This document shows, one piece after another, positions 1 through 56,206 of a stretch of 64,000 nucleotides of DNA. Within the stretch, counting starts at the first letter, position 1. Each line of letters opens with the position of its first letter. The notes below the pieces were generated by a model. The model did no database searches. It saw nothing but the letters and a program-made list of their open reading frames with translations, and was not told the origin of the DNA. The DNA lies in the IMG/VR virus record IMGVR_UViG_3300032242_001752, positions 1-64,000 of that record. One strand, written 5' to 3'. A program made the position numbers and the translations under genes. Origin of the DNA: a virus.

Positions 1-74
1 CCCAACTCAACAAAACGCTACAAACAACTTCGTTGTTTGTTTTAAGGGCTTTTGTAGCGTTTTGTTGAGTCGGG
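1..74. repeat. Long hairpin element with CCAACTCAACAA-type ends, copy 1
   Basis: 1-24 pairs with 51-74 (one mismatch); internal alternative hairpin ACAAACAAC-TTC-GTTGTTTGT. Confidence 0.9.
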
Positions 75-79
75 CGTGT

Positions 80-98
80 CGTTATCAAATTGTTATAA
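80..98. promoter_or_regulatory. 19-bp box CGTTATCAWWYGTTATAA-type (copy 1 of 9)
   Basis: CGTTATCAAATTGTTATAA; same motif at 959, 987(rc), 2064, 2093, 2121(rc), 3306, 3328, 3365. Confidence 0.85.
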
Positions 99-114
99 AC
101 TCACCCCCGAGGGG

Positions 115-144
115 GCGAGGAGGGCCTGGGCAAACCCTCCTCGC
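115..144 (-). terminator. GC-rich hairpin after cassette 1 genes
   Basis: GCGAGGAGGG/CCCTCCTCGC 10-bp stem just 3' of the stop at 152; no clear U-tract. Confidence 0.55.
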
Positions 145-151
145 TGTTCAA

Positions 152-448
152 TCAAACTATTGTGATAAGTGAAACTGGTGTGTCTTGTTCAGTGCAATAC
201 TGAAGTTTACCCCAAGGTGTTTCCACGAAGAAGTAATAGCCCTGACAGTCTAATTCGTGAAACGCTTTGAATAGCCCAGATAAGCGTGGATTATTTGGAG
301 GTGATTGACAAGCGCCCAGAAGTTCGATTTTGACTGGCTCAACTAGGAACTCGTCCTCTAAATACCTAAGTATAGCCATTACATAACCGTTCCATAGTTC
401 GCCATCGGCTCCTGTGGTGAGGTGTTGCTCTGTGATTCTAATTTCCAT
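152..448 (-). CDS. hypothetical (probably early) protein
   Basis: 98-aa ORF, RBS AAAGGAAA upstream. Confidence 0.8.
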   Translation of the reverse strand: MEIRITEQHLTTGADGELWNGYVMAILRYLEDEFLVEPVKIELLGACQSPPNNPRLSGLFKAFHELDCQGYYFFVETPWGKLQYCTEQDTPVSLITIV

Positions 449-470
449 TTTTCGTTTCCTTTGGTTAGAA

Positions 471-500
471 GTGAGCCAGTTTTAGGACATGGCTCAGGTC
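471..500 (-). ncRNA. intergenic H-type pseudoknot motif, copy 1
   Basis: GAC-C-TGAGCCA-T-GTC-CTAAAAC-TGGCTCA; covaries with 3 other copies. Confidence 0.7.
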
Positions 501-506
501 GCAAGG

Positions 507-857
507 TTATCTAGGGCTAATTGTCCCAGATTCTACACCCTTGATAAATTCACCAAGAGTGGAGTGGATTAGCACGATTTCGGCTAGTGTGAACTGACCA
601 CGCAATAACTCCGTGTTAGTGTATAGCGTTTCACCATAAAGACCAGTTAGGTAAACCCAAACATCTCGGTCAATGTGGATGGCGTGCTTGCCCTCGTTGC
701 CGTGCCAAACAGACACAGACACAAGGTCGGTTGTGTGAGGACTTACTACATCCTCGCCAGCGATGTTGTTGGTAGAGATTTCGCCCTTTACCCAAGTTTC
801 GTGATTCTCAACTGGTTCGGGTTTCACCTCAACCTTGATTTGGTGCTTAGTGTTCAT
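507..857 (-). CDS. hypothetical (probably early) protein
   Basis: 116-aa ORF, RBS TAGGAG. Confidence 0.8.
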   Translation of the reverse strand: MNTKHQIKVEVKPEPVENHETWVKGEISTNNIAGEDVVSPHTTDLVSVSVWHGNEGKHAIHIDRDVWVYLTGLYGETLYTNTELLRGQFTLAEIVLIHSTLGEFIKGVESGTISPR

Positions 858-926
858 ACTGAACTCCTAAATAAGTGTAAAGACTGCCCAGATAACTTTT
901 GTTCTCTCTCGTTCCTTACAAAAACT

Positions 927-977
927 AATCTAGCCTATTACACACATACCCCCCCTGTCGTTATCATTTTGTTATAA
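927..977 (-). promoter_or_regulatory. cassette promoter: 19-bp box-N7-GGGTATG-N12-TAGATT
   Basis: identical spacing in three cassettes. Confidence 0.75.
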
Positions 978-1005
978 ATCTCTGCTTTATAACGATTTGA
1001 TAACG
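959..1005. repeat. inverted pair of 19-bp boxes with 9-nt spacer
   Basis: 959-977 and 987-1005(rc); same geometry at 2093-2139. Confidence 0.85.
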
Positions 1006-1007
1006 AA

Positions 1008-1099
1008 CCAACTCAACAAAAGCTAATGGCAGCAAGCTGCCTATTAGCTTTATAATACCTAGGCTATATAATTATAGCCAGGTATTATTGTTGAGTTGG
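1008..1099. repeat. T-shaped (three-way) palindromic element, copy 2
   Basis: outer stem CCAACTCAACAA/TTGTTGAGTTGG; arm hairpins 1020-1050 and 1053-1087. Confidence 0.9.
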
Positions 1100-1171
1100 C
1101 GCACCTCTGCCCCTCTGCTCCCGAGCACGCCAAAACCAGCCCCCATTGCTGGGGACTGGCTGGCTGGTTGC

Positions 1172-1417
1172 TTACATCACTTTGTGTTCGCAATCACACT
1201 TTGCATCGTGGTCGCGACCCAGTGAACCTTCGGGCAAGTCTAGACTACGCTCCAACAGGTCTAAGCCTGTCCAGAATGACTCACGCCAGCCTGGGCTGTC
1301 GTCCCAGTCCTGTTGGTGATAATAGTCCAGAGCCGTAGTTATCTTGTCCACTAACTGAGTAGCAGTCTTTGTGATAGCGTGGTTTTGTAGGGTTACCCAG
1401 ATTTGTTCTTCGAACAT
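1172..1417 (-). CDS. hypothetical (probably early) protein
   Basis: 81-aa ORF, RBS AAAGGAAA; C-terminal HDAKCDCEH. Confidence 0.8.
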   Translation of the reverse strand: MFEEQIWVTLQNHAITKTATQLVDKITTALDYYHQQDWDDSPGWRESFWTGLDLLERSLDLPEGSLGRDHDAKCDCEHKVM

Positions 1418-1442
1418 TTTATTTCCTTTTCTTGTTTGTAGG

Positions 1443-1473
1443 GTGAGCCAGTTTAGACACTTGGCTCAGGTGT
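1443..1473 (-). ncRNA. intergenic H-type pseudoknot motif, copy 2
   Basis: ACAC-C-TGAGCCA-A-GTGT-CTAAAC-TGGCTCA. Confidence 0.7.
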
Positions 1474-1481
1474 TGGTTTTA

Positions 1482-1961
1482 CTAGTTGATTAGTCCTAGT
1501 TCGCGGTGCTCAAACTCAACTTCAAAGGCACTTGCTTTTAGACACTTGCCGTCAGTTAGTTCGTGGTCGCAAACTCCGTCAAAGCAGTCGGACTCTTGCG
1601 TGAATACCACAAAGGTATCTGCTAAGTGGCAACGCTGAGCAGTCCACGTGCTAGGACCATAAAGGTCGTATTCCATAGCCGTCAAAAATACGCCGTCGTG
1701 TTCGCCGTTAGTTGCGTATGTGATGCCGTCCATGTCGCAAGAGTCAAAGAATGACTGAATGCTCGCAAAGTAGTTGCCGAATGCTTCCCAGTATTCAACT
1801 CGTTTGATGTCAGTTCCTGATGTCATACCACGCCAAGTTTGCTGACGTTCATTGACATCTTTCCTGCTATACCAATACTTGACCAGTTCCAAAGGCGTGT
1901 CAAGCGTATAAGTGTAATCGCTAGACTCAACGGAACTGACTAACAAAGGATTTGTATCCAT
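1482..1961 (-). CDS. hypothetical (probably early) protein
   Basis: 159-aa acidic ORF downstream of the cassette promoter. Confidence 0.8.
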   Translation of the reverse strand: MDTNPLLVSSVESSDYTYTLDTPLELVKYWYSRKDVNERQQTWRGMTSGTDIKRVEYWEAFGNYFASIQSFFDSCDMDGITYATNGEHDGVFLTAMEYDLYGPSTWTAQRCHLADTFVVFTQESDCFDGVCDHELTDGKCLKASAFEVEFEHRELGLIN

Positions 1962-2031
1962 TGCCCGTTCTCTCTGCTAGGGAACTACTTGCCTAGACAC
2001 TTTATCTAGGTCCCGTTTCCCTAACAAGATA

Positions 2032-2082
2032 AGACTATGCTATTTTAGGCATACCCTATCTCTCGTTATCAATTCGTTATAA
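2032..2082 (-). promoter_or_regulatory. cassette promoter: 19-bp box-N7-GGGTATG-N12-TAGTCT
   Basis: same spacing as 927-977 and 3274-3324. Confidence 0.75.
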
Positions 2083-2092
2083 TCTTTTTTTT

Positions 2093-2139
2093 CGTTATCA
2101 TTTCGTTATAAACTCTCGCTTTATAACAATTTGATAACG
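2093..2139. repeat. inverted pair of 19-bp boxes with 9-nt spacer
   Basis: 2093-2111 and 2121-2139(rc). Confidence 0.85.
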
Positions 2140-2142
2140 GCC

Positions 2143-2248
2143 CCAACTCAACAAAACTATTGGCAAAAAGGCCTGACGGCCTTTTAGCCTAATAGTTTTA
2201 GCCCTATACTATGCTAAAGCATATAGTATACGGGCTTTGTTGAGTTGG
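2143..2248. repeat. T-shaped (three-way) palindromic element, copy 3
   Basis: same 12-bp outer stem; two internal hairpins of largely different sequence. Confidence 0.9.
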
Positions 2249-2312
2249 CGCGATCTCTAGGCTGGCTGTGTCCCCGAAGGGAGGGAGGCTGGTTTCCCAG
2301 CCCCCCAGTTGT

Positions 2313-2531
2313 TTATTCTACTTCGTCTAATGCCCACGAAGTAAGTTTGATGTTTGTAATCTGTCTAGACGAATCTAGGCAGGTTTGACACAGGTGAGCG
2401 CCTTCATTTTCCACAGGGATCCACTGAGCCATGTGAGCCTTTGGAAGTGTAACAAAGACGCTAACAACTTTAGCGAAGTGTGTTGCCGGTGTTTCGGTTG
2501 ATGTTTCTAGGCATTTAGCACATAGATTCAT
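2313..2531 (-). CDS. small Zn-binding hypothetical protein
   Basis: CAKC...CQTC; start moved to ATG 2531 because the upstream GTG lies inside the pseudoknot motif. Confidence 0.7.
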   Translation of the reverse strand: MNLCAKCLETSTETPATHFAKVVSVFVTLPKAHMAQWIPVENEGAHLCQTCLDSSRQITNIKLTSWALDEVE

Positions 2532-2555
2532 TTCATTACTTTCTTGTTTGAGTGA

Positions 2556-2586
2556 GTGAGTCAGTTTATCCACTTGACTCAGGTGG
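2556..2586 (-). ncRNA. intergenic H-type pseudoknot motif, copy 3
   Basis: CCAC-C-TGAGTCA-A-GTGG-ATAAAC-TGACTCA; compensatory changes in both stems. Confidence 0.7.
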
Positions 2587-2591
2587 TATTG

Positions 2592-2771
2592 CTAGTGGCT
2601 AAATACGCTATGTGTTTCGTGCTTGCCACGTGGTCTTACAAGCATTAGCACCTTGTAAGTTTTGGTGTTGTTGATGTAGCAGTCAGGGTTGTCGCATTTC
2701 CAACAACCCGCTAAACCCTTGCCCATAAAGTAATCAAAGGTCTTGTTGTATAACTTGCAGTAAGTAGTCAT
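2592..2771 (-). CDS. 59-aa Cys-containing hypothetical protein (not in ORF track)
   Basis: MTTYCKLYNK...CWKCDNPDC...; TAATG overlap with upstream ORF. Confidence 0.6.
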   Translation of the reverse strand: MTTYCKLYNKTFDYFMGKGLAGCWKCDNPDCYINNTKTYKVLMLVRPRGKHETHSVFSH

Positions 2772-2857
2772 TACTTACCCGCTTTCTGCCATAGTCGCCC
2801 AATGTAGAAAGCGATAATCATTTCAAGTAAGTCTTGCCCATTGAATATGTGAATCAC
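2771..2857 (-). CDS. 28-aa microprotein (not in ORF track)
   Basis: GTG start after GAAAGG RBS: MIHIFNGQDLLEMIIAFYIGRLWQKAGK. Confidence 0.55.
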   Translation of the reverse strand: MIHIFNGQDLLEMIIAFYIGRLWQKAGK

Positions 2858-2880
2858 TTTGTTGCCTTTCTATTTGTAGG

Positions 2881-2910
2881 GTGGCAGTTTTGGACGGGTC
2901 TGCCAACCGT
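2881..2910 (-). ncRNA. intergenic H-type pseudoknot motif, copy 4 (diverged)
   Basis: ACGG-T-TGGCAG-AC-CCGT-CCAAAA-CTGCCA. Confidence 0.6.
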
Positions 2911-2922
2911 GTTTGTTGCGAA

Positions 2923-3201
2923 CTAGATAGATGCTAAGTCAGCGACTACCCTAGCGTTTACCCTTGCCCAAAACTCAGCGCAGGTAATTTGGAATGGTTT
3001 GCCAAGTTCCAAAGCCGAGACTGTGGTGGCGTATAGTGTTTCCCAGCGTGCCATTTCTAGTTCGTATTCTTGAACCATAAACGCATCGTTGCTCGTAGCC
3101 TTGACTGTGGCTAGTGCTTCACTAGCCTTGTCGTAAGCATCACGAATTACACTAACAAGGTCTAACCCTGTCCTGTAATCCGTCTCTAAAACAATTTCCA
3201 T
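2923..3201 (-). CDS. hypothetical (probably early) protein
   Basis: ATG 3201 after GGAGAG; helical 92-aa protein. Confidence 0.75.
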   Translation of the reverse strand: MEIVLETDYRTGLDLVSVIRDAYDKASEALATVKATSNDAFMVQEYELEMARWETLYATTVSALELGKPFQITCAEFWARVNARVVADLASI

Positions 3202-3273
3202 TGCTCTCTCCAATTACCAAGCAACTCTCGCCTAAGCCCTTTTGTCTTAGTGTCTTGTTTGCCTGATAAAGCC

Positions 3274-3383
3274 AAACTATCAGTTTCACCACATACCCCA
3301 TTCGTCGTTATCAATTCGTTATAATGCCGTTATCATTTTGTTATCTAAGGGGGGTAGGGTTAATCGTTATCAAATCGTTATAA
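3274..3383 (-). promoter_or_regulatory. cassette promoter with three 19-bp boxes (3306, 3328, 3365)
   Basis: box-N7-GGGTATG-N12-TAGTTT. Confidence 0.75.
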
Positions 3384-3509
3384 TCCACCAGGCCACAGAT
3401 AGGATTTTTTGATTTAAATAGTCAGGCAGTAGCCTAAATGCGGGATATGCATTTTCAATTAAATATTTGATTAGGTGCGGGATTGGCCGCATTGGCTGCA
3501 TAGCTTATT

Positions 3510-3537
3510 TTGCAATGTCAGGGGTCTGTGCTATAAT
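3510..3537 (+). promoter_or_regulatory. sigmaA-type rightward promoter
   Basis: TTGCAA-N16-TATAAT with extended -10 TG. Confidence 0.6.
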
Positions 3538-3587
3538 TCCGGAAGCTTACGGTGCGGTTTCCCTGGTTTTAATACATAATGGATAAC

Positions 3588-3764
3588 ATGGAACCTGATA
3601 AGAACCAATTTGGTAGAATCAAGGACAAGGTTGTAAGCTTCCTTAAGTTTAAAGATAACAAGATAGCTGAGACTACGCCGTTTGGCCCTATGAGCAAGTA
3701 CCAAGAGAATCCTGAGAACAGGATTATACACAAGTCTGTGCGAGAGGACCGCAATGAGCGATGA
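3588..3764 (+). CDS. small protein, N-terminal MEPDKNQF
   Basis: ORF track (second ATG chosen); first of a chain of overlapping ORFs. Confidence 0.65.
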   Translation: MEPDKNQFGRIKDKVVSFLKFKDNKIAETTPFGPMSKYQENPENRIIHKSVREDRNER

Positions 3765-4044
3765 GCACGTGCACGTCATAACAGACTGTAAAGCTTGTGG
3801 AATAAAGCGGTTTGCAGAAGGAAAGCCGCGCGAGTCTCACTCAGTCATCCCAGTTGAAAAGGGAATTAGTGAAGTTCCAGCAACATATACCTTCTTAGCC
3901 GAGAGCTCACACGAATTAAATAACCACAAGCAAGATATGATACATAGAGTGTTTAGACAGACGAAAGGCAAGCCTTTCTTTAACCCTATGAACTCTAGAA
4001 TAGTAAACTTCAATCACGGCAAGGACCACAATGGAACCGAGTAA
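3754..4044 (+). CDS. hypothetical protein (CxxC)
   Basis: 96 aa, coupled to neighbours. Confidence 0.7.
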   Translation: MSDEHVHVITDCKACGIKRFAEGKPRESHSVIPVEKGISEVPATYTFLAESSHELNNHKQDMIHRVFRQTKGKPFFNPMNSRIVNFNHGKDHNGTE

Positions 4045-4507
4045 AGGTCAGTTTTACAATGTTAATGGCAACAGACGAGTTGTGACCACTTCTGTGCAGG
4101 AAAAGAACAAGCCTCACTACAAGCTAGTGGGAGAAGGCATCGACCGCGATGTCGCTGACTTGCTAGCCGAGCAAGAGGCCAATCCTACCTCTGGCCTTCG
4201 TGGCCGCAAGACCAAGGCTAGCGATCTAATGGGCAATCAAGAAAAACTACTTGAGAACCTAGGTAAAGACGTTAGAAGAACAGCAAGAGCCGAAGGTGCA
4301 TCAAACAAGTCTGAAAACACTCGTGAGCTAAGGACTGCAGAAGCTTTTAGAACTAACCCTACAATTGCTGAACTAATGAAACGAGAAGAGCCGCTTGAAG
4401 TAAGTGGTGACGCACTAGCCAGAGTTAGACGTGGCGATGCACCGAAGCTTATCGCAACCACCGCAACCTGGGATAAGCGTAAGAAAGACCTTGGTGTAGG
4501 AGAATAA
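4031..4507 (+). CDS. hypothetical protein, N-terminal MEPSKGQF
   Basis: 158 aa, RBS AAGGA. Confidence 0.8.
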   Translation: MEPSKGQFYNVNGNRRVVTTSVQEKNKPHYKLVGEGIDRDVADLLAEQEANPTSGLRGRKTKASDLMGNQEKLLENLGKDVRRTARAEGASNKSENTRELRTAEAFRTNPTIAELMKREEPLEVSGDALARVRRGDAPKLIATTATWDKRKKDLGVGE

Positions 4508-4827
4508 TGAGCAACGGAAGCAAAAAGACTAGAGCTGCGAGCAAGACTGGTAGAACAGCCCACTTTGAGGCTGGAGTCAGTGGTGGCCGCGAGTATTGGG
4601 ATAACAGAGACAATGGTCCTCACAAAAAGACCTATGAAGTGTCTAAGAGAGACACTCTTCCTTTTGGCCCTAAAGAGCAGAAGGCAACAAAACTAGGCTG
4701 GCACATGAAGACCGGTAAGTACCCTACACACCACCCATCTATGGAATATGATGAGCGTTGTTCTAAGTGTGAAGCTTTAGACAGTACTTTTGACCATCCT
4801 AATGGCCGTAAGATAACTGACGACTAA
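4507..4827 (+). CDS. hypothetical protein (CxxC)
   Basis: TAATG overlap. Confidence 0.75.
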   Translation: MSNGSKKTRAASKTGRTAHFEAGVSGGREYWDNRDNGPHKKTYEVSKRDTLPFGPKEQKATKLGWHMKTGKYPTHHPSMEYDERCSKCEALDSTFDHPNGRKITDD

Positions 4828-5279
4828 TGAAGCCACGCGATAGCCAGCTACCAGAAAAACCTAAGCACGACCACCCGTGGAAGCGTATTGAATGGGGTAA
4901 CGTTGCTCGCAGCAATGACACTGAAGGTAATAAGAGTGGATTTAAAAGCTTAGCTGGGGCAAAAGCAAAAGCCCGCAAGTGGCTAGAGGCTTCCGGATTA
5001 AATAGGCTACACGCACCAAAAGTAGCCGGAGCTGACCACGTTAATATTAAAATTACTAAAGATACCAATGGTGACCACAATATTGAATATCAAAATAAAT
5101 ATTGTGAAGCCTGCGCACCTGAGCGTATCCATACCATTAGCTCTACTCCTATCGAAAGTTGGAAAACAATAGCAGAAGAAGCAGCTGCCGGTAGAGATGT
5201 GCGTCCAGGCGGACACAGAAAATATGCAGTCCCAGCTAACCCAACTGAGACTCCGCCTCCTCATAGGATGGACGCGTAA
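4827..5279 (+). CDS. hypothetical protein, N-terminal MKPRDSQL
   Basis: TAATG overlap; CEAC motif. Confidence 0.75.
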   Translation: MKPRDSQLPEKPKHDHPWKRIEWGNVARSNDTEGNKSGFKSLAGAKAKARKWLEASGLNRLHAPKVAGADHVNIKITKDTNGDHNIEYQNKYCEACAPERIHTISSTPIESWKTIAEEAAAGRDVRPGGHRKYAVPANPTETPPPHRMDA

Positions 5280-5506
5280 TGAAGCCACGCGGGCTATTAG
5301 AAGAGTTCCAACACGGCCGTGCGCCGGAGCTCAACCAGGTGCTAGGTGTATTCACCCAAAATAATGCCGTTTTAGGGCTGGATGTACAAGGTGCAATTAG
5401 AATTAATGATGGTATCTTTACCGGGCCTAAAGGTGCATATCAAGGTTATACTAGTTCTGTTAACGCGTCTAATGTTACGCAAATACCTTATGGGAGCGCG
5501 CAATGA
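5279..5506 (+). CDS. hypothetical protein
   Basis: TAATG overlap; begins ATGAAGCCACGCG like the previous gene. Confidence 0.7.
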   Translation: MKPRGLLEEFQHGRAPELNQVLGVFTQNNAVLGLDVQGAIRINDGIFTGPKGAYQGYTSSVNASNVTQIPYGSAQ

Positions 5507-5679
5507 ATCCAAAAGAAGGCCAATTTAAAGGCCAGCTAAATGCTGAGCCGTCTGGTGAACTTGAGGTGTTAGAGCATCAATATCAAGAAGCTATGTCTCA
5601 GGACCCTCGCTACCTTACTGATGAGGACAAGCAGGAGATGAGTAACTTCTACGACAAGCAAGCAAAGGAAATGAAATAG
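5503..5679 (+). CDS. 58-aa protein, N-terminal MNPKEGQF (not in ORF track)
   Basis: ATGA overlap, GGAG RBS, fills the gap exactly. Confidence 0.7.
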   Translation: MNPKEGQFKGQLNAEPSGELEVLEHQYQEAMSQDPRYLTDEDKQEMSNFYDKQAKEMK

Positions 5680-5909
5680 TGCACCCTAAGTTTCGTCAAC
5701 TTCCACACAAGCCGCGTAATCCTCTACCAGTACGTTTAGAGGCACCAGAGCACGAGCACGACTTCCGCAGAAAATACTACCCAGATGGTACTTTAAAGTC
5801 TCAGACCAACTGTAAGACGCGTTACTGCAATGTTATGCCAGGAGTAAACGACTATGGAAAGCCGTATCCTGCTACTATTCACGACCCAAAACCTAAAGAG
5901 GATAACTAA
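5679..5909 (+). CDS. hypothetical protein, N-terminal MHPKFRQL
   Basis: TAGTG overlap. Confidence 0.7.
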   Translation: MHPKFRQLPHKPRNPLPVRLEAPEHEHDFRRKYYPDGTLKSQTNCKTRYCNVMPGVNDYGKPYPATIHDPKPKEDN

Positions 5910-6250
5910 TGGCTGAAAAGAAAAAAGCAACTAGTAAGAAGAAGAACAAGACCTTAGCGGGCAAAACTTCTGATGGTAAGAAGGTCTATGGCCCTTTTAA
6001 GGGCTCAAAGAAAAACGGTGGTCGTCCCATGATGTCTGTCGTAAATCCAGATGGCTCACGCACGTCTATCTCAGCTGCTCGTTATAAGTATGAAAAGACT
6101 CACGGCAAGCTTCCTAAGAATGTTGACGTGGACCACAAGAACAATAACCACTCTGATGATAAATCAGGCAACCTTCGCGCTTTAGCTCACGGTAAGAACA
6201 CTGCTAAAGAGAACAAGCGCCGCGCAGGAAAGAAAGAGAACCAGAAGTAA
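5909..6250 (+). CDS. HNH endonuclease-like basic protein
   Basis: DVDHKNNNHSDD..NLRAL..N motif. Confidence 0.75.
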   Translation: MAEKKKATSKKKNKTLAGKTSDGKKVYGPFKGSKKNGGRPMMSVVNPDGSRTSISAARYKYEKTHGKLPKNVDVDHKNNNHSDDKSGNLRALAHGKNTAKENKRRAGKKENQK

Positions 6251-11849: not shown

Positions 11850-13430
11850 ATGAATGACAATGAAGAGTACTATGACGATGAACTCGATGAATATGAGGAC
11901 TCTGTTGATAGTGAGTTTGAGCCGTATGACGATGGCTTAGATGAATTATCTCGTGAATTTGTAGACCAATTAATTGATAAAATTATGGTTTTTATGCACG
12001 CTCTTATTGGACATGAACTACGCACTTATCAAAAGCCTTTAGCACGCCGTATCATCGAATCTGTGGTTATCAATGAGGGTGAAGAAATTACCGCACTGGC
12101 TTCTCGTCAGTCCGGTAAGTCTGAGACTGTAGCCGATACCGTAGCCGCTCTTATGGTTATTCTTCCTAGGCTCGCCAAGATGTACCCTGACCTACTAGGT
12201 CGTTTCAAAGACGGACTGTGGGTAGGCTTATTCGCCCCTGTAGAAAGCCAGGCAGAAACTCTATTTAGTCGTGTCATTACTCGCCTTACAAGTGAACACG
12301 CTCTAGCTGTGCTTGAAGACCCTGAGATTGACGATGAGGCTAAGAAGGTTGCTGGTGTTACCAAGCAGGTTAAACTTCTTAACTCTGGCTCATCAGTAAT
12401 GATGATGACTGCCAACCCTAGAGCCAAAATTGAGTCTAAGACTTTCCATCTTATCGTTATTGATGAGTGTCAGGAAGCGGATGACTTTATCGTAGCTAAG
12501 TCTATCGGTCCTATGCTTGCGTCTACAAACGGTACTATGGTAAAAACCGGTACCCCTACTACACATAAAAACAATTTCTATCGCGCAATCCAACTCAACA
12601 AACGCCGTGCTACTGGCCGAGGCGGAAAGCAAAATCACTTTCAGTGGGACTGGCGCGATGTCGCTAAGGTAAGCGAAGAGTACGGTAAGTTCGTTCGTAA
12701 AGAGATGCTCCGTATCGGCGAGGACTCTGACGAGTTCCAGATGGCCTATAACTGTAAGTGGCTTCTAGAACGCGGTATGTTTGTGTCATCTACCGTCATG
12801 GATGAGCTAGGCGATACATCCATGAAGACTATAAAGGCCTGGCACCGTACCCCAGTTATCGTAGGTATTGACCCTGCCCGTAAAATGGACTCGACAGTAG
12901 TAACTGTTATTTGGGTGGACTGGGATAGGCCCGATGAGTTTGGTTACTATGACCACCGCGTGTTTAACTGGCTAGAGATTCAAAATGATGACTGGGAAGA
13001 CCAGTACTTTCAAATCGTTAACTTCCTAGAAAACTATAACGTCCTGTATGTTGGCGTAGATGCCAATGGTGTTGGGGATGCAGTAGCTCAACGTCTACGT
13101 TTATTGTTGCCTAGAGCCGAGGTTATTTCTGTAAGCAGTAGCCAGCAAGAGCAGTCTAAACGTTGGAAGCACTTAAAGACCTTGATTGAACGCCGCCTTA
13201 TCGGGTGGCCTGCTCACGCTGAAACTCGTAGGTCTAGGTCATGGAAGCGTTTTTATCAGCAAATGACTGACCTAGAGATTAAGTTCCAGGGTCCTAATTT
13301 CCTAGCCCATGCGCCTGAAGAAGCCCATGCTCACGATGACTATGCTGATAGTTTGGCTATTGCAGTAAGCTTAACGCTAGATCTTACGATGCCTTCTGTA
13401 GAAGTAAGTTCTTCACCATTTTTTAGATAA
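11850..13430 (+). CDS. terL: terminase large subunit
   Basis: Walker A ASRQSGKSE, Walker B IVIDECQ, nuclease GIDPAR and DDYADS. Confidence 0.95.
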   Translation: MNDNEEYYDDELDEYEDSVDSEFEPYDDGLDELSREFVDQLIDKIMVFMHALIGHELRTYQKPLARRIIESVVINEGEEITALASRQSGKSETVADTVAALMVILPRLAKMYPDLLGRFKDGLWVGLFAPVESQAETLFSRVITRLTSEHALAVLEDPEIDDEAKKVAGVTKQVKLLNSGSSVMMMTANPRAKIESKTFHLIVIDECQEADDFIVAKSIGPMLASTNGTMVKTGTPTTHKNNFYRAIQLNKRRATGRGGKQNHFQWDWRDVAKVSEEYGKFVRKEMLRIGEDSDEFQMAYNCKWLLERGMFVSSTVMDELGDTSMKTIKAWHRTPVIVGIDPARKMDSTVVTVIWVDWDRPDEFGYYDHRVFNWLEIQNDDWEDQYFQIVNFLENYNVLYVGVDANGVGDAVAQRLRLLLPRAEVISVSSSQQEQSKRWKHLKTLIERRLIGWPAHAETRRSRSWKRFYQQMTDLEIKFQGPNFLAHAPEEAHAHDDYADSLAIAVSLTLDLTMPSVEVSSSPFFR

Positions 13431-34610: not shown

Positions 34611-35949
34611 TACAGTTAGTCTACTAGCAGATAACGGCGCAGTTACCTCTGGTTATGCGTCTGTTTATTTTCCTGAAAGCCCTAATGCTCCTAGAAGGGT
34701 ATATAAAGTTACCCTTCGGCAAGAAGTATTTTCGCATGACTATGCTGATATTTATTTCAGGGACTGGAAAGTAAATCCTTCTACTATTAAACCAATGACT
34801 AAAATAGTATTAACTATTAGAAATAAGAAATACCACGGATTTGTTCATAATGTTGAGAATGTTCAGGAGTCCGCTAAGAACTTTACAAAGATTGGTTTCA
34901 TAGGTGCTTCACACGTATTTAGGCAGTCTAGCCAAAAGATTTATCGTGATGTAACTGCTAGCCAGGTGATTGTTGAGTTGGCAAAGAAGTATAACTTTGC
35001 ATATAAAGTTACCCCACATAAGAGAGTCTATTCTTCTATTGTTCAAGGTGGCCGAACTGATTGGCAGCTAATGGTAGATTTAGCTAATGAATGTGGTTAC
35101 TTCTTACGAGCAGAAAACACCGAGATTTACTTTCACCCATTAATGGAAGACTTTAACTACTATATAAATGAAGCTGTAATTTTTGATAAGGGCGACGCTG
35201 GATTTAAAGGCAGAAGACCAATCTATAATTTTAGTCCGGTAATTAGCGAAACCATGACCCACTTTGGTTTTAAAAAAGCCGCTACTTCTATTGCTGGTGT
35301 TAACCCTATTGACGGAACTACCTTTAAAATTACTAATCAAGACCCGTTTACCCCTAACCGTGTAAGCTCAAACCCTGAATCTTTTGACGACCATGATACT
35401 ACTGCTGTAGCAAATGACTATACTACTGCATCACTTTTGGCTAAAAGTTCAGATGACTATAGTAGCTTTCCATACATTGCGGATGTAGACACCATCGGTA
35501 TTGAAAAAGTACGCCCATGCCTTCCCGTATACCTAAATAACGTAGGTGACCAATACTCAGGATACTGGACGGTCTTAAGTATTAGGCATGAAGTAATTGA
35601 GGCTCAGTTAAATCAGCCGCTATACACATGTTCCATGACCGTAGCCACTGACTCTTTAGGGCAAATATCTGATCCTAATAAGCCTGTTATTCCACCAACT
35701 AATCCAGTTAGAACTATTATTCCTAATGTAGATAATACGGTTATTGTTCCACAAACTGTTATTAATAGTCCTGGTTTATCTATTATTCCAATTCCACAAT
35801 ACGAAATTGTTGATAGAATTAACCGTCCAGGTATTGATGTTCAGCTAGCTTCTGTGTCTAAGTGGGCATCTACTCACGGCGACCTTAATTACAGATATAG
35901 TGAAAATAACATGCCGCCTATTGTCCGTGCAAAGGTGATTACGATATGA
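34603..35949 (+). CDS. baseplate hub protein (GpD/gp27-like)
   Basis: TASQVI..LA..Y, Q...TDWQL...LA, YSG.W.V..I.H. Confidence 0.75.
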   Translation: MPSTVSLLADNGAVTSGYASVYFPESPNAPRRVYKVTLRQEVFSHDYADIYFRDWKVNPSTIKPMTKIVLTIRNKKYHGFVHNVENVQESAKNFTKIGFIGASHVFRQSSQKIYRDVTASQVIVELAKKYNFAYKVTPHKRVYSSIVQGGRTDWQLMVDLANECGYFLRAENTEIYFHPLMEDFNYYINEAVIFDKGDAGFKGRRPIYNFSPVISETMTHFGFKKAATSIAGVNPIDGTTFKITNQDPFTPNRVSSNPESFDDHDTTAVANDYTTASLLAKSSDDYSSFPYIADVDTIGIEKVRPCLPVYLNNVGDQYSGYWTVLSIRHEVIEAQLNQPLYTCSMTVATDSLGQISDPNKPVIPPTNPVRTIIPNVDNTVIVPQTVINSPGLSIIPIPQYEIVDRINRPGIDVQLASVSKWASTHGDLNYRYSENNMPPIVRAKVITI

Positions 35950-39994: not shown

Positions 39995-42900
39995 ATGACA
40001 ATCTATGGTTCTAAACCCTATTACTCTTTTACATACGGTTCTCCGGCTGTATTAGACTTTAGCATATCTCCGTTTAAAGCGATTGCTACGGACTATGGAA
40101 CTATATCTTTGTCTTGGTATATGCCTGGTTATGATGCTACTTTCTCAAAGTTAATCGTATTAAGAAGCGCACTAGGATTTCCTACAACTGCTGACGAAGG
40201 CGATTTAATTTATTCCACGACTAAGGTTGCTTTGTCTGTTGGAGGAAGCGGAACCCCAGTTACTTTAACTGGAGTAACATCATCCGGAACTAAATTTACA
40301 GTGTCTAGCACTACTGGTTTATCTGTAGGACAAACTATTACAGTGACTTCAGGTACGGGTACTTTATCCACTTCCGATATTACATATATTTCACAAATAC
40401 TTAGTTCTACAACTTTTTCAGTTAATCTGGCACCTAGCGTTGCGCTCTCTGGAGCTACCATAACTGCAACTAATTCTTTGTTAAATAAGAAGTTTACCTA
40501 TGTAGATAGTGGTGCGTATATCGACCAGCTAACTGGCTCTACAACTCCTACATACACTGCAACTACAGCGTTAGCTGTAAATAATGACACTCGCGTTACG
40601 CTAAAAGCAAGCAATTCAAACATTGCTGTTAAACAGTCAGTTACATATAAATCCAGCGGAAAAACTACAGGTCCTAACTCCGGTAGCGGTATCGTTGGTG
40701 GAACTACTGTTGCATCTATCAACGGAACTTCTTTAGTTCTTAGCGACTACGCTAATATCCCATCTGATACCGTACTAACATTTTCCCCTGTTTCTTTAGA
40801 TACAGGGCAGACTTATTACTACTCTATCTTTGTATATTCAAATAACTATTGGCAAAGAGTAGGTAAGCCTGCTGCCGGAGTTTCTATTAAAAATTATAAT
40901 ACCGCAACAACGATGTATGAACATTTGCCAGAGGTGTATCGTTCTCCTGCCGCGCTATCGTCATTCTCCACTGCTACTCAAAACGTAGATCTGTATAACT
41001 TTTTACGAGTATTTGCTGTTCAGTACGATCTTACAAAGACTATGATTGATAACGCTAAGAATAGATATGATGTTAAAAATCTTGATGGTCGTATGATTCC
41101 CGCTATGCTGGCGAGTTTTGGATTTAACTATGAAAGTGTTTTAGGGCTTCAGCAAGCTAGAAGGCTGCTTCAATACGCATCCTTTATTTATTTGAATAAA
41201 GGCTCTGTAAAAGGGCTTAAAGAGTTTATTGCAGCATTTGCGGGTTATAACGTGACTATTGGTAGCATAAAAAATCTTCTGCTTACACTAGACTGCTCTT
41301 CTTTTGAAAACGGAACTGGTTTTTGGGATATTACTTCCGGTACAGCCACTATAACTAATACCAACTCAACAACAGAAGGCGGAAGTCCGGCCCCTTATTT
41401 AGAGGCTAATTCTCCAGTGGGTTACTTAAATAAACAGGCTGGTTATCTAAAAGTATCTGCAACCTCCGGCGCGTCTGCTGTAACTATCAGCTACGGAAAC
41501 TCATTAGATGATTATGCAATTAGCACAACGGTTACTACAACCACTACGGGTTATGTAACCTTAACTACTGATAAATCTAACCCATTTACTGTAGGTCAAT
41601 CGGTAAATATTAAAGGCCTTTCCCCAGCATCTGTAAACGGTGTTTATAAAATAGTTAGCGTAAGTTCCTCCAGAGTATTTACTTTAGCTAATGCCGCTGT
41701 TTCATCAGGAACTGCTATTTCGGGGTCAGGTTTTGCATCCGTATTTGATCCTACTTTGTATGGAGTACCTGTAACTGCCGGTAACTACTATAAATTAGGT
41801 ATTTATAGCCAACCAAAAACTGGAAGCAGTTGCAGTATTACAGTTGGTATTAACTGGTATGACCAATTTGGGTCATACTTAAGCACTGTATTTGATGGCC
41901 CTTACGGTGCAACTACCCCTGGTTCTTGGACTCAAACTATAAATACTGCCCAGCTTGCTCCGGCAAGAGCCGCATACGCTGTTCCTTACTTTACCCTAGA
42001 TACATTTACTGGTACTCCGGACGTAGAATACTTTGATGCAGCGCAGTTTGAACAAGCCTATAGTACGGCATATAATCCGCTTCCATACACAGACGCTAGA
42101 CGTTTAGATTTGTATTTAACTCCTACCAGAGCTAATGAAATTATTAATCCTGGTTTTGAAACATCTGTAGCTAACTGGTCAGTTACTAATGGAAGCATTG
42201 CTCTAGAAACTGGGGCATCTAATATTTATCCAACCGCTAGCATTGGCGCAGGTACTTCTGTAAGTGCTGGATCAGCTAAGATTACGGCAACAGGTTCGAT
42301 TACCACACTTACTCAACTACTTTCAATATCTAACGTGTCCGTAGCCACTAGCGGAAGGTTACTTATTGGAACAGGGTATAGCACTTATGGAACCAATAAT
42401 TTATCCCTAGGCCAAACTATAACTAAAATATCTGGAACGGGTACTTTAGCAGCTAGTACCTTGATATCGTCTATTCAATCTTCTTCAAGATTTACAGTTA
42501 GCCCTAACCCAACTGGTAGTGGAAATATGACTATTGGTGTATCTGGCACTAAAATACTTCCAAATTTATCTTATGCACTTAGTATGTACGTAAGCGGAAC
42601 AGCCGGAGCAACAATAACTCCTACAGTTGTTTGGAAAAATTCTTCTGGAACTACTGTTCAAACAGATACTGGCTCAGCTACTACGCTAACTTCTTCGTTC
42701 CAGAGAGTATCTTTACTGCCATCTTCTATTTTTGGAACGGTATCTACTTCTTCATTATTTAGCACATCATTAGTTTTAACAACTGACATTTCTGCAGTCA
42801 CTGGTCAATCGGTAAGCGGTGCAGGCATTTTAGCCGGAACTACCGTATCTTCTTACAATAGTAGTACTAAAACTATTACGCTTAGCCAAGCCGCAACTGT

Positions 42901-53576: not shown

Positions 53577-54101
53577 ATGAAAAAGTACGTAATAATCGCC
53601 AGCGTAATGTTAACTCTCGCTGGTTGTTCTGCTTCTGCAGCAACTGCTGTAGTTACAGATTTACAAAAAACAAATACACAGGTTTCACATGTGTCTTTTA
53701 ACCAAGCTTTAACATCTAAAGCTAATGGTAAAAAAATGATTCGCACTGTGAACTACCTAATATCACGCGTAGGAAGAACCTCTTACGTATTCTCAGGAGA
53801 AACCCCATATGGTTGGGATTGCTCCGGTATGGTCCGTTGGACATACAAACAATTTGGTATCACGCTCCCTCACTCTGCTAATAAACAGGGTCATTTGGGA
53901 GCCCGTGTAAACAAACCTAAAATAGGCGACATAGTTGTTTTTGCCTATAAGGGACGCACGGATTTCTACCACGCCGCCATCTACATTGGTAAAGGCAAAG
54001 TAATCAACGCTAACTACGGCTCAGGCACCACTATAATCGAGCCATTATCGGACTACAAAGGTAGCGAAATTCGGTTTATCCGAGTGTTACCTACGATATA
54101 A
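53577..54101 (+). CDS. NlpC/P60 peptidoglycan hydrolase, lipoprotein
   Basis: lipobox LAGC; WDCSG, GDIV.F, HAAIY. Confidence 0.9.
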   Translation: MKKYVIIASVMLTLAGCSASAATAVVTDLQKTNTQVSHVSFNQALTSKANGKKMIRTVNYLISRVGRTSYVFSGETPYGWDCSGMVRWTYKQFGITLPHSANKQGHLGARVNKPKIGDIVVFAYKGRTDFYHAAIYIGKGKVINANYGSGTTIIEPLSDYKGSEIRFIRVLPTI

Positions 54102-54111
54102 TGTAACGGTC

Positions 54112-54184
54112 GCCTCAATAGCTCAGTTGGTAGAGCGCAATACTTGTAATATTGATGTCGCGGGTTCGATTCCTGCTTGAGGCT
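54112..54184 (+). tRNA. tRNA-Thr(TGT)
   Basis: cloverleaf GCCTCAA/TTGAGGC, anticodon loop CTTGTAA, TTCGATT T-loop; TATAAT upstream. Confidence 0.93.
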
Positions 54185-54290
54185 CTTTTATGGTAAAATC
54201 TTCTTAGACACGCCAATCGGGTGTCATAAATAATACTGTGCTACGGGCAGTAAAAGTACCAAGGCACAGTTGTCGTCTAAAGGAGACAAC

Positions 54291-54845
54291 ATGAACATAT
54301 TAAGTGATGAGTTCCCAGACCCATGGGATAAGCACAGAAATCCATATGACCCATATGGTAAAGCAATTCCAAATCCGCATGACCCTGCGGATGTTTATAA
54401 AAAGTGGCAAAAACCTGCCGCCCCTAAAGTCATTACTATTAATGACTTGTTTCCCAGCTTAGACCGCTGGGCTATTGGCTATTCGTCAATCCTAGAACAA
54501 CTTAAGGAAATGTCTGCTGTAAAGGCGAGCTACCCTCCTTATGACATTATTGACCAAAACCCATTTTCCACCCTTATCAACGTCGCTGTGGCTGGTTTCA
54601 CTAAAAAGGACCTTACAATCACAGTCGAAGAAAGGACGTTGAAAATTGAAGGAACAAAAGAAGAAAAAGAATCAGAAGGAACGCTCGTTCACAACGGCAT
54701 TGCTGGACGCGATTTTAAACTCACCTTTGCCTTGGCTGAGTTTTATGAAGTAGAGTCAGCTGCTGTTAAAGACGGTATCCTAACGGTCAAGCTCATTAAA
54801 AATATTCCTGATGAAAAAAAGCCAAAGGTTATTGACATCAAGTAA
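54291..54845 (+). CDS. Hsp20 small heat-shock protein
   Basis: YPPYDI, AVAGF, GIAGRDF, DGIL.V; AAGGAG RBS. Confidence 0.92.
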   Translation: MNILSDEFPDPWDKHRNPYDPYGKAIPNPHDPADVYKKWQKPAAPKVITINDLFPSLDRWAIGYSSILEQLKEMSAVKASYPPYDIIDQNPFSTLINVAVAGFTKKDLTITVEERTLKIEGTKEEKESEGTLVHNGIAGRDFKLTFALAEFYEVESAAVKDGILTVKLIKNIPDEKKPKVIDIK

Positions 54846-54868
54846 TTTTGATGTAAACTAAAAGTCCT

Positions 54869-54897
54869 CCCGGCAAGCTTTCGACGTGTTTGCCGGG
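54869..54897 (+). terminator. hairpin after hsp20
   Basis: CCCGGCAAGC/GTTTGCCGGG; no U-tract. Confidence 0.45.
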
Positions 54898-54905
54898 GGG
54901 AGCTA

Positions 54906-54985
54906 GGGCCTGAAATGGTGTCGATTGCAGAACAAAGCCTCCAGTAGGAATCTGTAAGACCACAGTTCAATTCTGTGCAGGTCCA
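54906..54985 (+). ncRNA. minimal tmRNA-like RNA (tRNA-like domain only)
   Basis: acceptor GGGCCTG/CAGGTCC-A with G3.U70; stemless D-loop AAATGGTGTCGA; helix TTGCAGA/TCTGTAA; GAC plus T-arm CACAG-TTCAATT-CTGTG. Confidence 0.8.
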
Positions 54986-55006
54986 CGATGCACGCATGTC
55001 CAGCGG

Positions 55007-55156
55007 CATTGGGGTCACGTACCTCACCTTAGTCGCGAGGCTAGGCGTTTAAGGCTCTTTACTGCTGAGTCCACAAAACCAACCAGCAGAGCGAAAGCTT
55101 GAGACGACTCGCAAGAGTGGGAACGCCCGAAAGGGTCAGTACTAGGTTTTCCAATG
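55007..55156 (+). ncRNA. unassigned structured RNA with four GNRA tetraloops
   Basis: GCGA, GAAA, GCAA, GAAA capped hairpins; closing CATTGG/CCAATG. Confidence 0.6.
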
Positions 55157-55226
55157 ACCATTAGCTCAATGGCAGAGCAGAGAGCTGTTAACTCTAAGGT
55201 TCCTGGTTCGAGTCCAGGATGGTCAG
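55155..55226 (+). tRNA. tRNA-Asn(GTT)
   Basis: TGACCAT/ATGGTCA acceptor, anticodon loop CTGTTAA, TTCGAGT T-loop. Confidence 0.93.
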
Positions 55227-55246
55227 CTTTATGGTAAAATATAGGT

Positions 55247-55411
55247 ATGCCAAACGCACCTAAGACCCCGACGCGCACCGTAAGAGTGCCTGATGATCTG
55301 TGGCTTGCCGCTCAAAAAGAAGCCGCCAAGCAGGGAATCACCGTAACCAGCGTCCTTCTAGAAGCTCTAGAAAAATTTATTTCTGAGGGACTTGACAAAG
55401 TCTCAGAGTAA
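55247..55411 (+). CDS. ribbon-helix-helix DNA-binding protein, leaderless (not in track)
   Basis: TPTRTVRVPDDLW..A...A...G.TVTSVL..AL; TAAAAT 6 nt before ATG. Confidence 0.8.
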   Translation: MPNAPKTPTRTVRVPDDLWLAAQKEAAKQGITVTSVLLEALEKFISEGLDKVSE

Positions 55412-55421
55412 GTGTTAGCGT
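55392..55421 (+). promoter_or_regulatory. sigmaA-type promoter
   Basis: TTGACA-N18-TAGCGT. Confidence 0.6.
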
Positions 55422-55473
55422 TGTACCGCTAAGACATAGCATCCCCTACGGGGGTTAGACTACAGAGGTACAA

Positions 55474-55908
55474 ATGCCAATTAATCAAGAAACACCAAGC
55501 CCGGATATTGAACGTGTCCGCAAAGAAGTTCAGCAATACGTCTTTCTAAAAGACGAAGTATCTGGAATTGAAACTAGAGTAGGCGAGCTAAGAAAGCGTA
55601 TTCTATCCCTAGTTGAAGAACTGGGCGAAACTAACGACAAGGGAAGCATTGTACTTCCTATTTCCGATTCTGTCAGCAACACAGCTAGCGTGGTAAAGCA
55701 GCGCCGTGTGTCTAAAGTATTCGACGAAGACAAAGCCCACAACCTATTAGCAGAAAAAGGTTTAACTGAGTTTTGCACAAAAACCATTGTGGTACTTGAC
55801 CAAGATGCTGTCATGGCTGCATACTATGATGGTAAGTTAACCGATGCAGACATCGAAACAATGTTCCCTGAGAAAGTTTCATGGGCACTAATTTTGGAGA
55901 AGAACTAA
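55474..55908 (+). CDS. hypothetical protein
   Basis: GAGG RBS; N-terminal coiled coil. Confidence 0.8.
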   Translation: MPINQETPSPDIERVRKEVQQYVFLKDEVSGIETRVGELRKRILSLVEELGETNDKGSIVLPISDSVSNTASVVKQRRVSKVFDEDKAHNLLAEKGLTEFCTKTIVVLDQDAVMAAYYDGKLTDADIETMFPEKVSWALILEKN

Positions 55909-56141
55909 TGGCTAAGATGGCAGAACTACACGCAGAACTAACTGAACTACCTGACTCAGAAAAGTCATATATGGAAGGCTTTTTTAGAGGCCGCGCCGAA
56001 GGACTTGCTATCGGTCAAGAAGAGGGCGAATTCACAGAACGTGAACGCATTATCAAGCTGCTAGAAACTAATTTGCCTTTGGTATTTACTGAAACAGTTG
56101 CTCAAGTAACCGTAGCTTTAATTAAAGTAGAAGATAAATGA
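55908..56141 (+). CDS. hypothetical protein
   Basis: TAATG overlap; ERERIIKLLE motif. Confidence 0.7.
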   Translation: MAKMAELHAELTELPDSEKSYMEGFFRGRAEGLAIGQEEGEFTERERIIKLLETNLPLVFTETVAQVTVALIKVEDK

Positions 56142-56206
56142 GTTTCCTTATCGGATGCTTCATTGTTCTAGTCGTATTTGGAATTATAAGTTTTTTTAAC
56201 GCATGA
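56138..56206 (+). CDS. 22-aa hydrophobic micropeptide (not in track)
   Basis: ATGA overlaps at both ends. Confidence 0.45.
   Translation: MSFLIGCFIVLVVFGIISFFNA

Follow-up and report, generated by a model that had tools for sequence, protein, structure and literature searches.

Organization of the cassette array

The window analyzed here comprises the first 64 kb (64,000 nucleotides) of the IMG/VR virus record IMGVR_UViG_3300032242_001752, an 88,562-bp sequence judged to be 97% complete and belonging to the phage named G000 below. Its left end (positions 1-3383) is occupied by three small leftward gene units, A, B and C, in which one common succession of parts is read along the minus strand: one or several 19-bp boxes, a GGGTATG core, a -10-like hexamer, a leader stem-loop, a ribosome-binding site (RBS), the genes, GC-rich hairpins and a long palindrome. 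This order, proposed in a first-pass annotation made from the letters alone, was confirmed by motif, geometry and folding analysis, and the inverted box reported at two junctions lies at 987-1005 and 2121-2139 (Table 1).

The array is larger than first described: it comprises about ten leftward units, with one to four ORFan genes each, in approximately 10.2 kb. It crosses the ends of the record (81.7-88.56 kb plus 1-3383), and the window contains its right end. The predicted continuation to the left of position 1 was found at the other end of the record, where seven further junctions (record 81779 to 88524) precede those at 80 to 3306, with the same anatomy on both sides. The last 14 bases of the record are identical to its first 14 and are situated inside a palindrome base. 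Gene-proximal boxes are spaced by 0.9-1.2 kb within the window and by 0.8-1.8 kb elsewhere in the array, in agreement with the unit size of about 1.1 kb given initially. At its far end, the array adjoins a long leftward operon starting with genes of an AAA ATPase and a 716-aa (amino acid) protein.

The relatives used for comparison were the close phages G001 (L130), G002 (L131) and G003 and the distant actinophages G004 and G005, which have only a handful of proteins in common with G000. The join across the record ends is real, since L130 holds in one piece a box-hairpin-box junction homologous to record 88524 through 170. The order of units is not an assembly artefact of this record, because an independent Logan contig from the source sample spans 1-6000 with zero differences.

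Table 1. Parts of units A, B and C and of their junctions in the window (strand in parentheses).
Feature	Position	Details
Unit A boxes (three)	3306-3324, 3328-3346 (degenerate), 3365-3383	plus strand CGTTATC..GTTATAA, reversed relative to leftward transcription
Unit A putative promoter core	3274-3298 (-)	GGGTATG 3292-3298, 12-nt spacer, TAGTTT 3274-3279; without a -35 hexamer
Unit A 5' leader stem-loop and RBS	3202-3267 (-)	folding z = -2.0
Unit A genes	2313-3201 (-)	92 aa, 2923-3201; 28-aa micro-ORF, 2771-2857; 59 aa, 2592-2771; 72 aa, 2313-2531; no known family
Unit A predicted H-type pseudoknot	2878-2918 (-)	helix 1 ACGG/CCGT, helix 2 TGGCAG/CTGCCA, A-rich loop 3; just 5' of the next RBS
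Unit A second predicted pseudoknot	2553-2593 (-)	CCAC/GTGG; TGAGTCA/TGACTCA; intercistronic
Unit A two GC-rich hairpins past the stop codon	2249-2312 (-)	terminator-like, weak T run, z = -2.1
T-shaped (three-way) palindromic element	2141-2250	invariant base CCAACTCAACAA / TTGTTGAGTTGG
Unit B boxes	2064-2139 (-)	2064-2082 and 2093-2111 (plus strand), 2121-2139 (inverted)
Unit B putative promoter core	2032-2056 (-)	GGGTATG 2050-2056, 12 nt, TAGTCT 2032-2037
Unit B 5' leader stem-loop	1962-2025 (-)	z = -4.6
Unit B genes	1172-1961 (-)	159-aa ORFan, 1482-1961; 81 aa, 1172-1417, family '1', also in L180/L197
Unit B predicted pseudoknot	1440-1480 (-)	ACAC/GTGT; TGAGCCA/TGGCTCA; joins the 159-aa and 81-aa genes
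Unit B GC-rich hairpin with TTTT past the stop codon	1100-1171 (-)	terminator-like, z = -3.0
T-shaped palindromic element	1006-1101	invariant 12-bp base; second arm a TAGGCAnC..GnTGCC-AT hairpin with a bulged A
Unit C boxes	959-1005 (-)	959-977 (plus strand), 987-1005 (inverted)
Unit C putative promoter core	927-951 (-)	GGGTATG 945-951, 12 nt, TAGATT 927-932
Unit C 5' leader	858-920 (-)	stem-loop z = -0.7; RBS at 864
Unit C genes	152-857 (-)	116 aa, 507-857; 98 aa, 152-448
Unit C predicted pseudoknot	468-508 (-)	GAC/GTC; TGAGCCA/TGGCTCA; joins the 116-aa and 98-aa genes
Unit C two GC-rich hairpins past the stop codon	99-151 (-)	z = -3.0
Junction to the next unit	1-98	long hairpin 1-74 and box 80-98; partner box/promoter at record 88524-88542

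To the right of the array, a near-consensus sigma-70-type promoter (3509-3537, plus strand; TTTGCA, 17 nt, TATAAT with TG as extended -10), the only canonical one nearby, is placed back to back with it and would serve a plus-strand operon starting at 3579.

Exchange of genes between relatives

Relatives keep the non-coding parts of the array and exchange the genes, and the breakpoints fall at an RBS, a stop codon or a hairpin edge. The comparison of cassettes proposed by the first-pass annotation revealed differences in content, number and order with breakpoints at the conserved parts; gene order is not constant, exchange at the junctions does occur and the motifs are conserved. The suggestion that rearrangement takes place at the conserved junctions holds in this respect, but it was too narrow, as genes are also exchanged with open reading frame (ORF) precision at the pseudoknot/RBS linkers inside units.

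Exchange is evident at several time depths. Population variants are represented by contigs of two other samples, 95-99% identical to the window. Variant X2 departs from the window sequence at the stop codon of the 116-aa gene (508) and returns to it at the RBS (864), so that exactly the ORF 508-863 is replaced. Variant X3 departs at 864 as well, with yet another gene; altogether, the unit C leader is kept up to the RBS at 864 in three population variants and then followed by three different genes. The unit C pseudoknot sequence (472-512) is found between unrelated genes in variant contigs. Loss of a repeat was also observed: one 29-bp box repeat of unit B (29 letters at 2063) is deleted in a population variant.

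Between G000 and L130, structural proteins are 80-95% identical and a single array protein is shared (57% identity). The junction DNA of the two phages is 72-80% identical, and its order is kept; L130 has an additional one-gene unit, and G000 has a two-gene unit absent from L130. In comparison with the contig L180 (AAA proteins 62% identical, shared backbone DNA approximately 66%), a module of one gene and a T-shaped hairpin is 85% identical in different gene contexts, and a terminator-plus-hairpin module is 85.7% identical between unrelated genes. Beyond the outer margin of the hairpin base, the homology of G000 and L180 is lost.

The family maps drawn for 15 arrays are mostly colinear but show reassortment, with family 7 accompanied by 8 or by 4, the order 24-4 versus 4-24, family 3 occurring once or twice, and units present or absent. 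Such a largely colinear order with few permutations looks like recombination between homologous linkers and not like free transposition. For many relatives, the contigs break off at the array, in line with the repeats and variants there; those traced via the right-hand flanking gene stop approximately 700-800 bp upstream of it, at the edge of the array or just within it.

The phage and its hosts

According to its gene set, the 88.5-kb phage is a myovirus, since it encodes a tail sheath, baseplate J, an SPP1-type portal, the large terminase and a family-A DNA polymerase. No DNA match to it was found among 50,697 deposited phage genomes, and its 1081-aa protein has no match in the phage collection. 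A RecA of its own is encoded at 61593-62609 (Pfam E 1e-49), and a metallophosphoesterase at record 67484-68494.

The hosts are judged to be actinobacteria, because a gene of the WhiB family (63169-63543 in G000) is present in all five phages bearing the 19-bp box and, among 14 control genomes, WhiB is matched only in the actinobacterial one, Corynebacterium. A cyanophage had been suspected from a virion protein 43% identical to proteins of (T4-like) Synechococcus phages, but WhiB in five of five phages overrides this single similarity.

An auxiliary gene cluster at 53577-57369 of the window includes an NlpC/P60 lipoprotein, tRNA-Thr, an Hsp20-family protein, tRNA-Asn, a pyrimidine-dimer glycosylase and a glutaredoxin. 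Several proteins of this cluster are common to the distant actinophages G004 and G005.

Putative promoter cores and 19-bp boxes

The box CGTTATCANNTNGTTATAA occurs in nine copies in the window versus 0.08 expected, all of them inside 80-3383 and two of them inverted. It is a GTTAT-N6-GTTAT direct repeat, GTTAT(C/A), with an 11-bp period (one helical turn), and each junction contains one to three boxes. The geometry of the putative promoter is constant at seven junctions (three in the window and four outside): after a box come 14 nt with GGGTATG as their end, then 12 nt and a -10 hexamer of the TAnnnT type. A consensus scan revealed no leftward sigma-70 promoter at any junction, the sequence being G-rich where a -35 hexamer would sit. 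Among the leader stem-loops, which differ considerably in folding z (Table 1), that of unit C shows compensatory changes in its stem in L130. The GC-rich hairpins past the stop codons (z = -2 to -3) are followed in the window units by at most a short T run.

The box is common to G000, G001/L130, G002, G003 and the distant G004 and G005. Forward boxes are located 30-31 nt before the -10 in G002 and G003; in G004 and G005, they precede a true TTGACT -35 by 17-18 or 28-29 nt. The distance to the real or virtual -35 is thus approximately 7, 18 or 29 nt, in steps of one helical turn. L180 and L181 keep hairpins with the base CCAACTCAACAA but have three GTTCAC repeats with an 11-bp period at the box position. 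GTTCAC-type repeats in place of the GTTAT box were found in L178, L180, L181 and L197 (in L180 at 2807-2860, 3635-3690 and further junctions). The lineages have thus exchanged the upstream control element and kept the hairpin. In a scan of IMG/VR, at least 120 loci contained the box, mostly as single matches at about the chance number, and approximately 15 loci contained box clusters.

The triple GTTCAC of L180 corresponds to the 11-nt repeat units with GTTCAY that are bound by PhoP in Streptomyces (PMC2275107). The published MtrA repeat, G/T-T-G/A-A-C-C-N5-G-T-G/T-A-C-N (PMC5650626), differs by one base from the G002 box form GTTACC-N5-GTTACA; the form in G000 is GTTATC-N5-GTTATA, and the GTTAC/GTTAT box as a whole resembles the MtrA repeat. 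Like operators of the OmpR/PhoB family, the phage boxes contain at least two direct repeats of 5-6 nt at an 11-bp period and are positioned near the -35 region on a constant face of the helix, at helical-turn distances. These features, together with the GTTCAC swap, make the box look like a site for an OmpR/PhoB-family response regulator or another phased activator. In contrast to the PHO and MtrA-GlnR boxes, the A/T-rich GTTATC/GTTATA form does not correspond to a published consensus, the box is reversed in G000 and G001, and it is located in a phage, before every unit of the array.

Alternatively, the box could be read by the phage WhiB together with sigma-A. WhiB is the only protein with a DNA-binding domain shared by all five box-bearing genomes (E < 1e-4), and no obvious AT-hook was found in the WhiB proteins. 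An integration host factor (IHF) site was considered as well: the box fits WATCAANNNNTTR, which we take to be the IHF consensus, but none of the five phages has an HU/IHF gene, and actinobacteria, to our knowledge, lack IHF. This candidate was therefore rejected.

Palindromes with an invariant base

The 12-mer CCAACTCAACAA is found ten times in the window versus 0.41 expected. In the elements at 1-74, 1008-1099 and 2143-2248, it makes up the outer stem; the latter two elements fold as three-way (T-shaped) structures. The nine elements of G000 span 66-110 bp and have stems of 25-31 perfect pairs or, in the two T-shaped ones, a base of 12-15 bp with two arms. While the outer 12 bp do not vary, no two elements have the same inner part, which often contains two copies of an 8-nt word. 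Two layouts exist: the CCAAC end faces outward in units distant from the AAA gene, and TTGTTGAGTTGG comes first in the four units near it. Across relatives, the base is CCAAC-NN-AACAA with a lineage-specific NN; in G003 it is CCAACACAAACA. The exact paired 12-mer form was found in only eight other IMG/VR contigs, in multiple copies in each.

In 47 distinct hairpins, 1,195 Watson-Crick, 19 G-T, 10 A-C and 21 other pairs were counted, the exceptions being mostly at the loop end. Stems that are perfect on both strands suggest that the DNA itself, or the transcripts of both strands, must pair, or that one arm is copied from the other. Loops of the first layout contain a strand-specific word, TTTATTAGGGG on the plus strand and CCyTAGATCGG on the sense strand. 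In the T-shaped elements, the second arm with its bulged A (Table 1) is conserved and the lower stem covaries; the element at 1006-1101 has homologous elements in L130 and L180 that show compensatory changes.

Solitary exact copies of the 12-mer are situated outside the array at 12590-12601 (+), 34970-34981 (-), 41361-41372 (+) and record 75219-75230 (+), three of them inside genes; 0.011 copies were expected under a third-order Markov model. The copy at 12590-12601, in the large-terminase gene, is identical in L130 despite differences at neighbouring synonymous sites.

No Rfam family was above threshold for the palindromes; sub-threshold matches to generic long-hairpin models (microRNA precursors, plastid 3' untranslated regions) were regarded as meaningless. 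Direct repeats that could represent target-site duplications flank none of the nine G000 elements. Transposons of the miniature inverted-repeat or insertion-sequence type were rejected on these grounds and because no Y1 transposase or serine recombinase was found in G000, G002 or G003.

Two observations concern individual elements and lineages. The loop of the palindrome at record 83920-84007 (L009 9921-10008) is flipped relative to three others of the same layout, as would be predicted from recombination of the arms or from an element able to take up both orientations. In the higher-GC G002 (L131 14000-19400), each junction retains one base arm, TGTTTGTGTTG; next come a short hairpin, whose loop is CCCnCCCTCCC, and the word GGGAT..GGGAGAGAGAT, and finally one or two forward boxes approximately 70 nt apart. 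The G002 junction word GGGATAGGAG is close to what we take to be the start-associated sequence (SAS) of Cluster K mycobacteriophages.

Pseudoknot linkers and cassette proteins

Four intercistronic spacers of the window and one of L130 are predicted to form compact H-type pseudoknots, in which a 6-7-bp hairpin has a 5'-loop word of 3-4 nt complementary to the upstream flank. The word pairs all differ (ACGG/CCGT, CCAC/GTGG, ACAC/GTGT, GAC/GTC and TCAG/CTGA). Each flank forms 4, 4, 4, 3 and 4 pairs of 4, respectively, with its own loop and approximately 2 in cross-pairings; loop lengths are 0-2, 1-2 and 6 nt, the last loop being A-rich. The support is good but not formal: registers were picked by eye, and pairs were counted by hand and by script because MAFFT misaligned two stem classes.

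The cassette proteins of the window belong to no Pfam or PHROGs family. Elsewhere in the array, DUF932 and DUF3846 proteins, a 229-aa protein with a weak sub-threshold DUF1281_C match and a 114-aa protein with weak matches to PHROG transcription regulators are encoded. A search of 5.8 billion proteins with the 159-aa protein yielded two homologues, each encoded on a contig of a related phage; for the 116-aa protein, nothing useful was obtained from the protein atlas. The carried proteins are mutually unrelated, as annotated initially, with no pair reaching E < 0.01. A role of the cassette genes in host takeover or anti-defence is a reasonable guess.

The 28-codon micro-ORF of unit A (2771-2857, minus strand; VIHIFNGQDLLEMIIAFYIGRLWQKAGK), which overlaps the start codon of the following gene (TAATG), is kept in L130 (MLHVINGQDLLEMIIAFFIGRGFQK...) while the surrounding genes differ; its product may be a small hydrophobic peptide.

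Possible origin of the mosaicism

The array is probably a hyperplastic accessory region similar to the promoter-early stem-loop (PeSL) cassettes of T4-type phages; its separate leftward units would be shuffled by homologous recombination at shared parts. Each unit would be transcribed leftward from a -10-only promoter, with GGGTATG and the direct-repeat box upstream at a constant distance. The message would start with a protective 5' stem-loop, pseudoknots just before each RBS would join the genes, the GC-rich hairpin would act as a terminator closing the unit, and the long perfect palindrome would insulate it from the next one. Found again at each junction and in related phages, these common non-coding parts could act as portable homology patches. 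Recombination between co-infecting relatives would then replace single ORFs, add or remove units and reassort genes between units, with the phage RecA as the likely agent of exchange. Homologous recombination appears to be the economical interpretation, since RecA is present, swaps occur at linkers devoid of palindromes, no tyrosine or serine recombinase and no Y1 transposase was found in G000, G002 or G003, and the palindromes lack target-site duplications.

Several points weigh against this scheme. We infer the starts and stops of transcription, the activator and the role of the palindromes, as well as homologous recombination itself; promoter, terminator and processing functions are read from the sequence alone. 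Units within one genome share no more than 12-13 bp of exact identity (the hairpin base) and the 19-bp boxes, a short stretch for RecA to act on; much of the exchange may proceed, rather, between orthologous junctions of different phages, where homology is longer. In G000 and G001, the gene-proximal box is reversed and lies 26 nt away from the -10, but it is forward in all other phages, which is awkward for a direction-sensitive activator. Almost purely Watson-Crick stems are unusual for selection acting on RNA only. Finally, the solitary 12-mers outside the array and the single base arm kept at each G002 junction point to a sequence-specific factor, and the scheme names none.

Homologous recombination could be dispensed with if the parts were purely regulatory and, as in the general model of phage mosaicism, rare illegitimate recombination took place anywhere, with selection keeping the joints at gene boundaries. 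Selection on random joints would likewise leave breakpoints at stop codons and RBSs, hypervariable early regions are common in phages, and the short identity between junctions of one genome fits such an origin. It is nevertheless unlikely, considering that linkers of 95-99% identity border the swapped ORFs at either end and that the 85.7% identical terminator-hairpin module lies between unrelated genes in two lineages. In addition, the lost box repeat is exactly one 29-bp period, the ends of many relatives' contigs at the array are consistent with repeats and variants, and the phage has RecA. The boxes of G000 (GTTATAAA, with a -10-like TATAAA facing the palindrome) could alternatively be rightward promoters for small antisense hairpin RNAs, one per junction. 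A plus-strand palindrome does begin 1-15 nt past every box, the loop word TTTATTAGGGG is conserved in a strand-specific manner, and pairing that is perfect on both strands suits a bidirectional role. Yet the boxes of G002-G005 and L180 face genes at phased distances from the -10 or -35, the plus strand has neither a -35 nor a T run past the palindrome, and no Rfam family exceeds the threshold, which makes this function highly improbable.

The palindromes themselves could be the sites of exchange. They may be compared to integron attC sites, with a cryptic enzyme cutting the invariant base and moving whole cassettes, i.e., a true gene-capture platform. As in integrons, one palindrome closes each unit, all units are co-oriented, and the inner part is variable, with a simple loop or branched. 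The base ACTCAAC / GTTGAGT (GTTAGGT and GTTGGGT in other lineages) fits RYYYAAC / GTTRRRY, which we take to be the attC core consensus; this match is post hoc, with a chance of about 1 in 100. Between lineages, homology breaks off precisely where the base ends on its outer side, stems perfect on both strands fit a structure at the DNA level, and the solitary 12-mers could serve as secondary sites. However, no tyrosine recombinase (PF00589) of the IntI type was matched in G000, G002 or G003, the control search being positive in 14 of 14 genomes, and no serine recombinase or Y1 transposase was found in these three phages. The uninterrupted 25-31-bp Watson-Crick stems lack the extrahelical bases and unpaired central spacer required for attC recognition, and each unit has its own promoter-like core and terminator-like hairpin. 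Many swaps take place within units at pseudoknot/RBS linkers without palindromes, G002 has one arm per junction, and the gene order of relatives is mostly colinear. An attC-like platform is therefore very unlikely. It is also quite unlikely that the palindromes are structure-specific sites of recombination or breakage of DNA followed by RecA repair, so that genes would be captured and shuffled without an integrase, and that the unit promoters are wired to host two-component regulators via PhoP-type or MtrA/GlnR-type boxes exchangeable between lineages. In that case, cruciforms or lagging-strand hairpins could be cut by an unrecognized nuclease of the phage or host.

Comparison with known systems

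PeSL cassettes of T4-type phages contain repeated terminator/promoter motifs before ORFans, and recombination between these motifs was proposed (Arbiol et al. 2010, PMC2839356; Comeau et al. 2014, PMC4122927). The array has in common with them a hyperplastic region, ORFans, and relatives differing by indels or replacements at the motifs. PeSLs are sigma-70 promoters with -35/-10 hexamers and an AT-rich upstream tract, and their stem-loop is inside or beside the promoter (PMC2839356, PMC4122927). The array, by contrast, lacks a -35, has the direct-repeat box and GGGTATG upstream, and has a terminator-like hairpin and a separate palindrome outside the promoter. These terminator-like hairpins and the palindrome precede every putative promoter, separated from its core by the 19-bp box(es), and pseudoknot linkers inside units are also used as joints. 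The phage is not T4-type, given its SPP1-type portal and WhiB; one virion protein, as mentioned above, resembles that of T4-like cyanophages. PeSL, named as the analogue by the first-pass annotation, is thus the right functional analogue, but strict membership does not apply, as there is no -35, the terminator-like hairpin and the palindrome lie apart from the putative promoter core, and the phage is not of the T4 type.

Short phage-specific words repeated at gene boundaries are known in actinobacteriophages. Cluster A stoperators bind the immunity repressor and are distributed genome-wide in one orientation; Cluster K SAS are located directly at start codons, and extended SAS (ESAS) are inverted repeats with variable spacers. 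Stoperators and SAS resemble the array in this respect but are not perfect palindromes of 25-30 bp built on an invariant base, nor are they linked to the exchange of cassettes. In phage T7, RNase III sites have internal loops and lie within one long early transcript. Like these related long hairpins bounding early units, the palindromes of the array would cause read-through transcripts to be cut and leave protective 3' hairpins; they differ in that each follows a terminator and is perfectly paired on both strands.

The principle is known from T4-type phages, and what is new is the set of parts, namely response-regulator-like boxes that can be exchanged, palindromes built on an invariant base and linkers with pseudoknots, together with the ORF-precise swaps observed in actinophage population variants.

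Significance

The array represents a clean natural example of accessory-gene turnover in a phage, at the level of single ORFs and of whole units, between near-identical variants. It extends the shuffling principle past T4-type phages to actinophages, via different parts. The palindromes are an undescribed structured element, in which an invariant base is combined with variable but always perfect arms. The conserved linkers are natural insertion points for the engineering of related actinophages. If the boxes are indeed response-regulator sites, the accessory genes would be expressed in dependence on host phosphate, nitrogen or cell-cycle signalling, which would be ecologically relevant.

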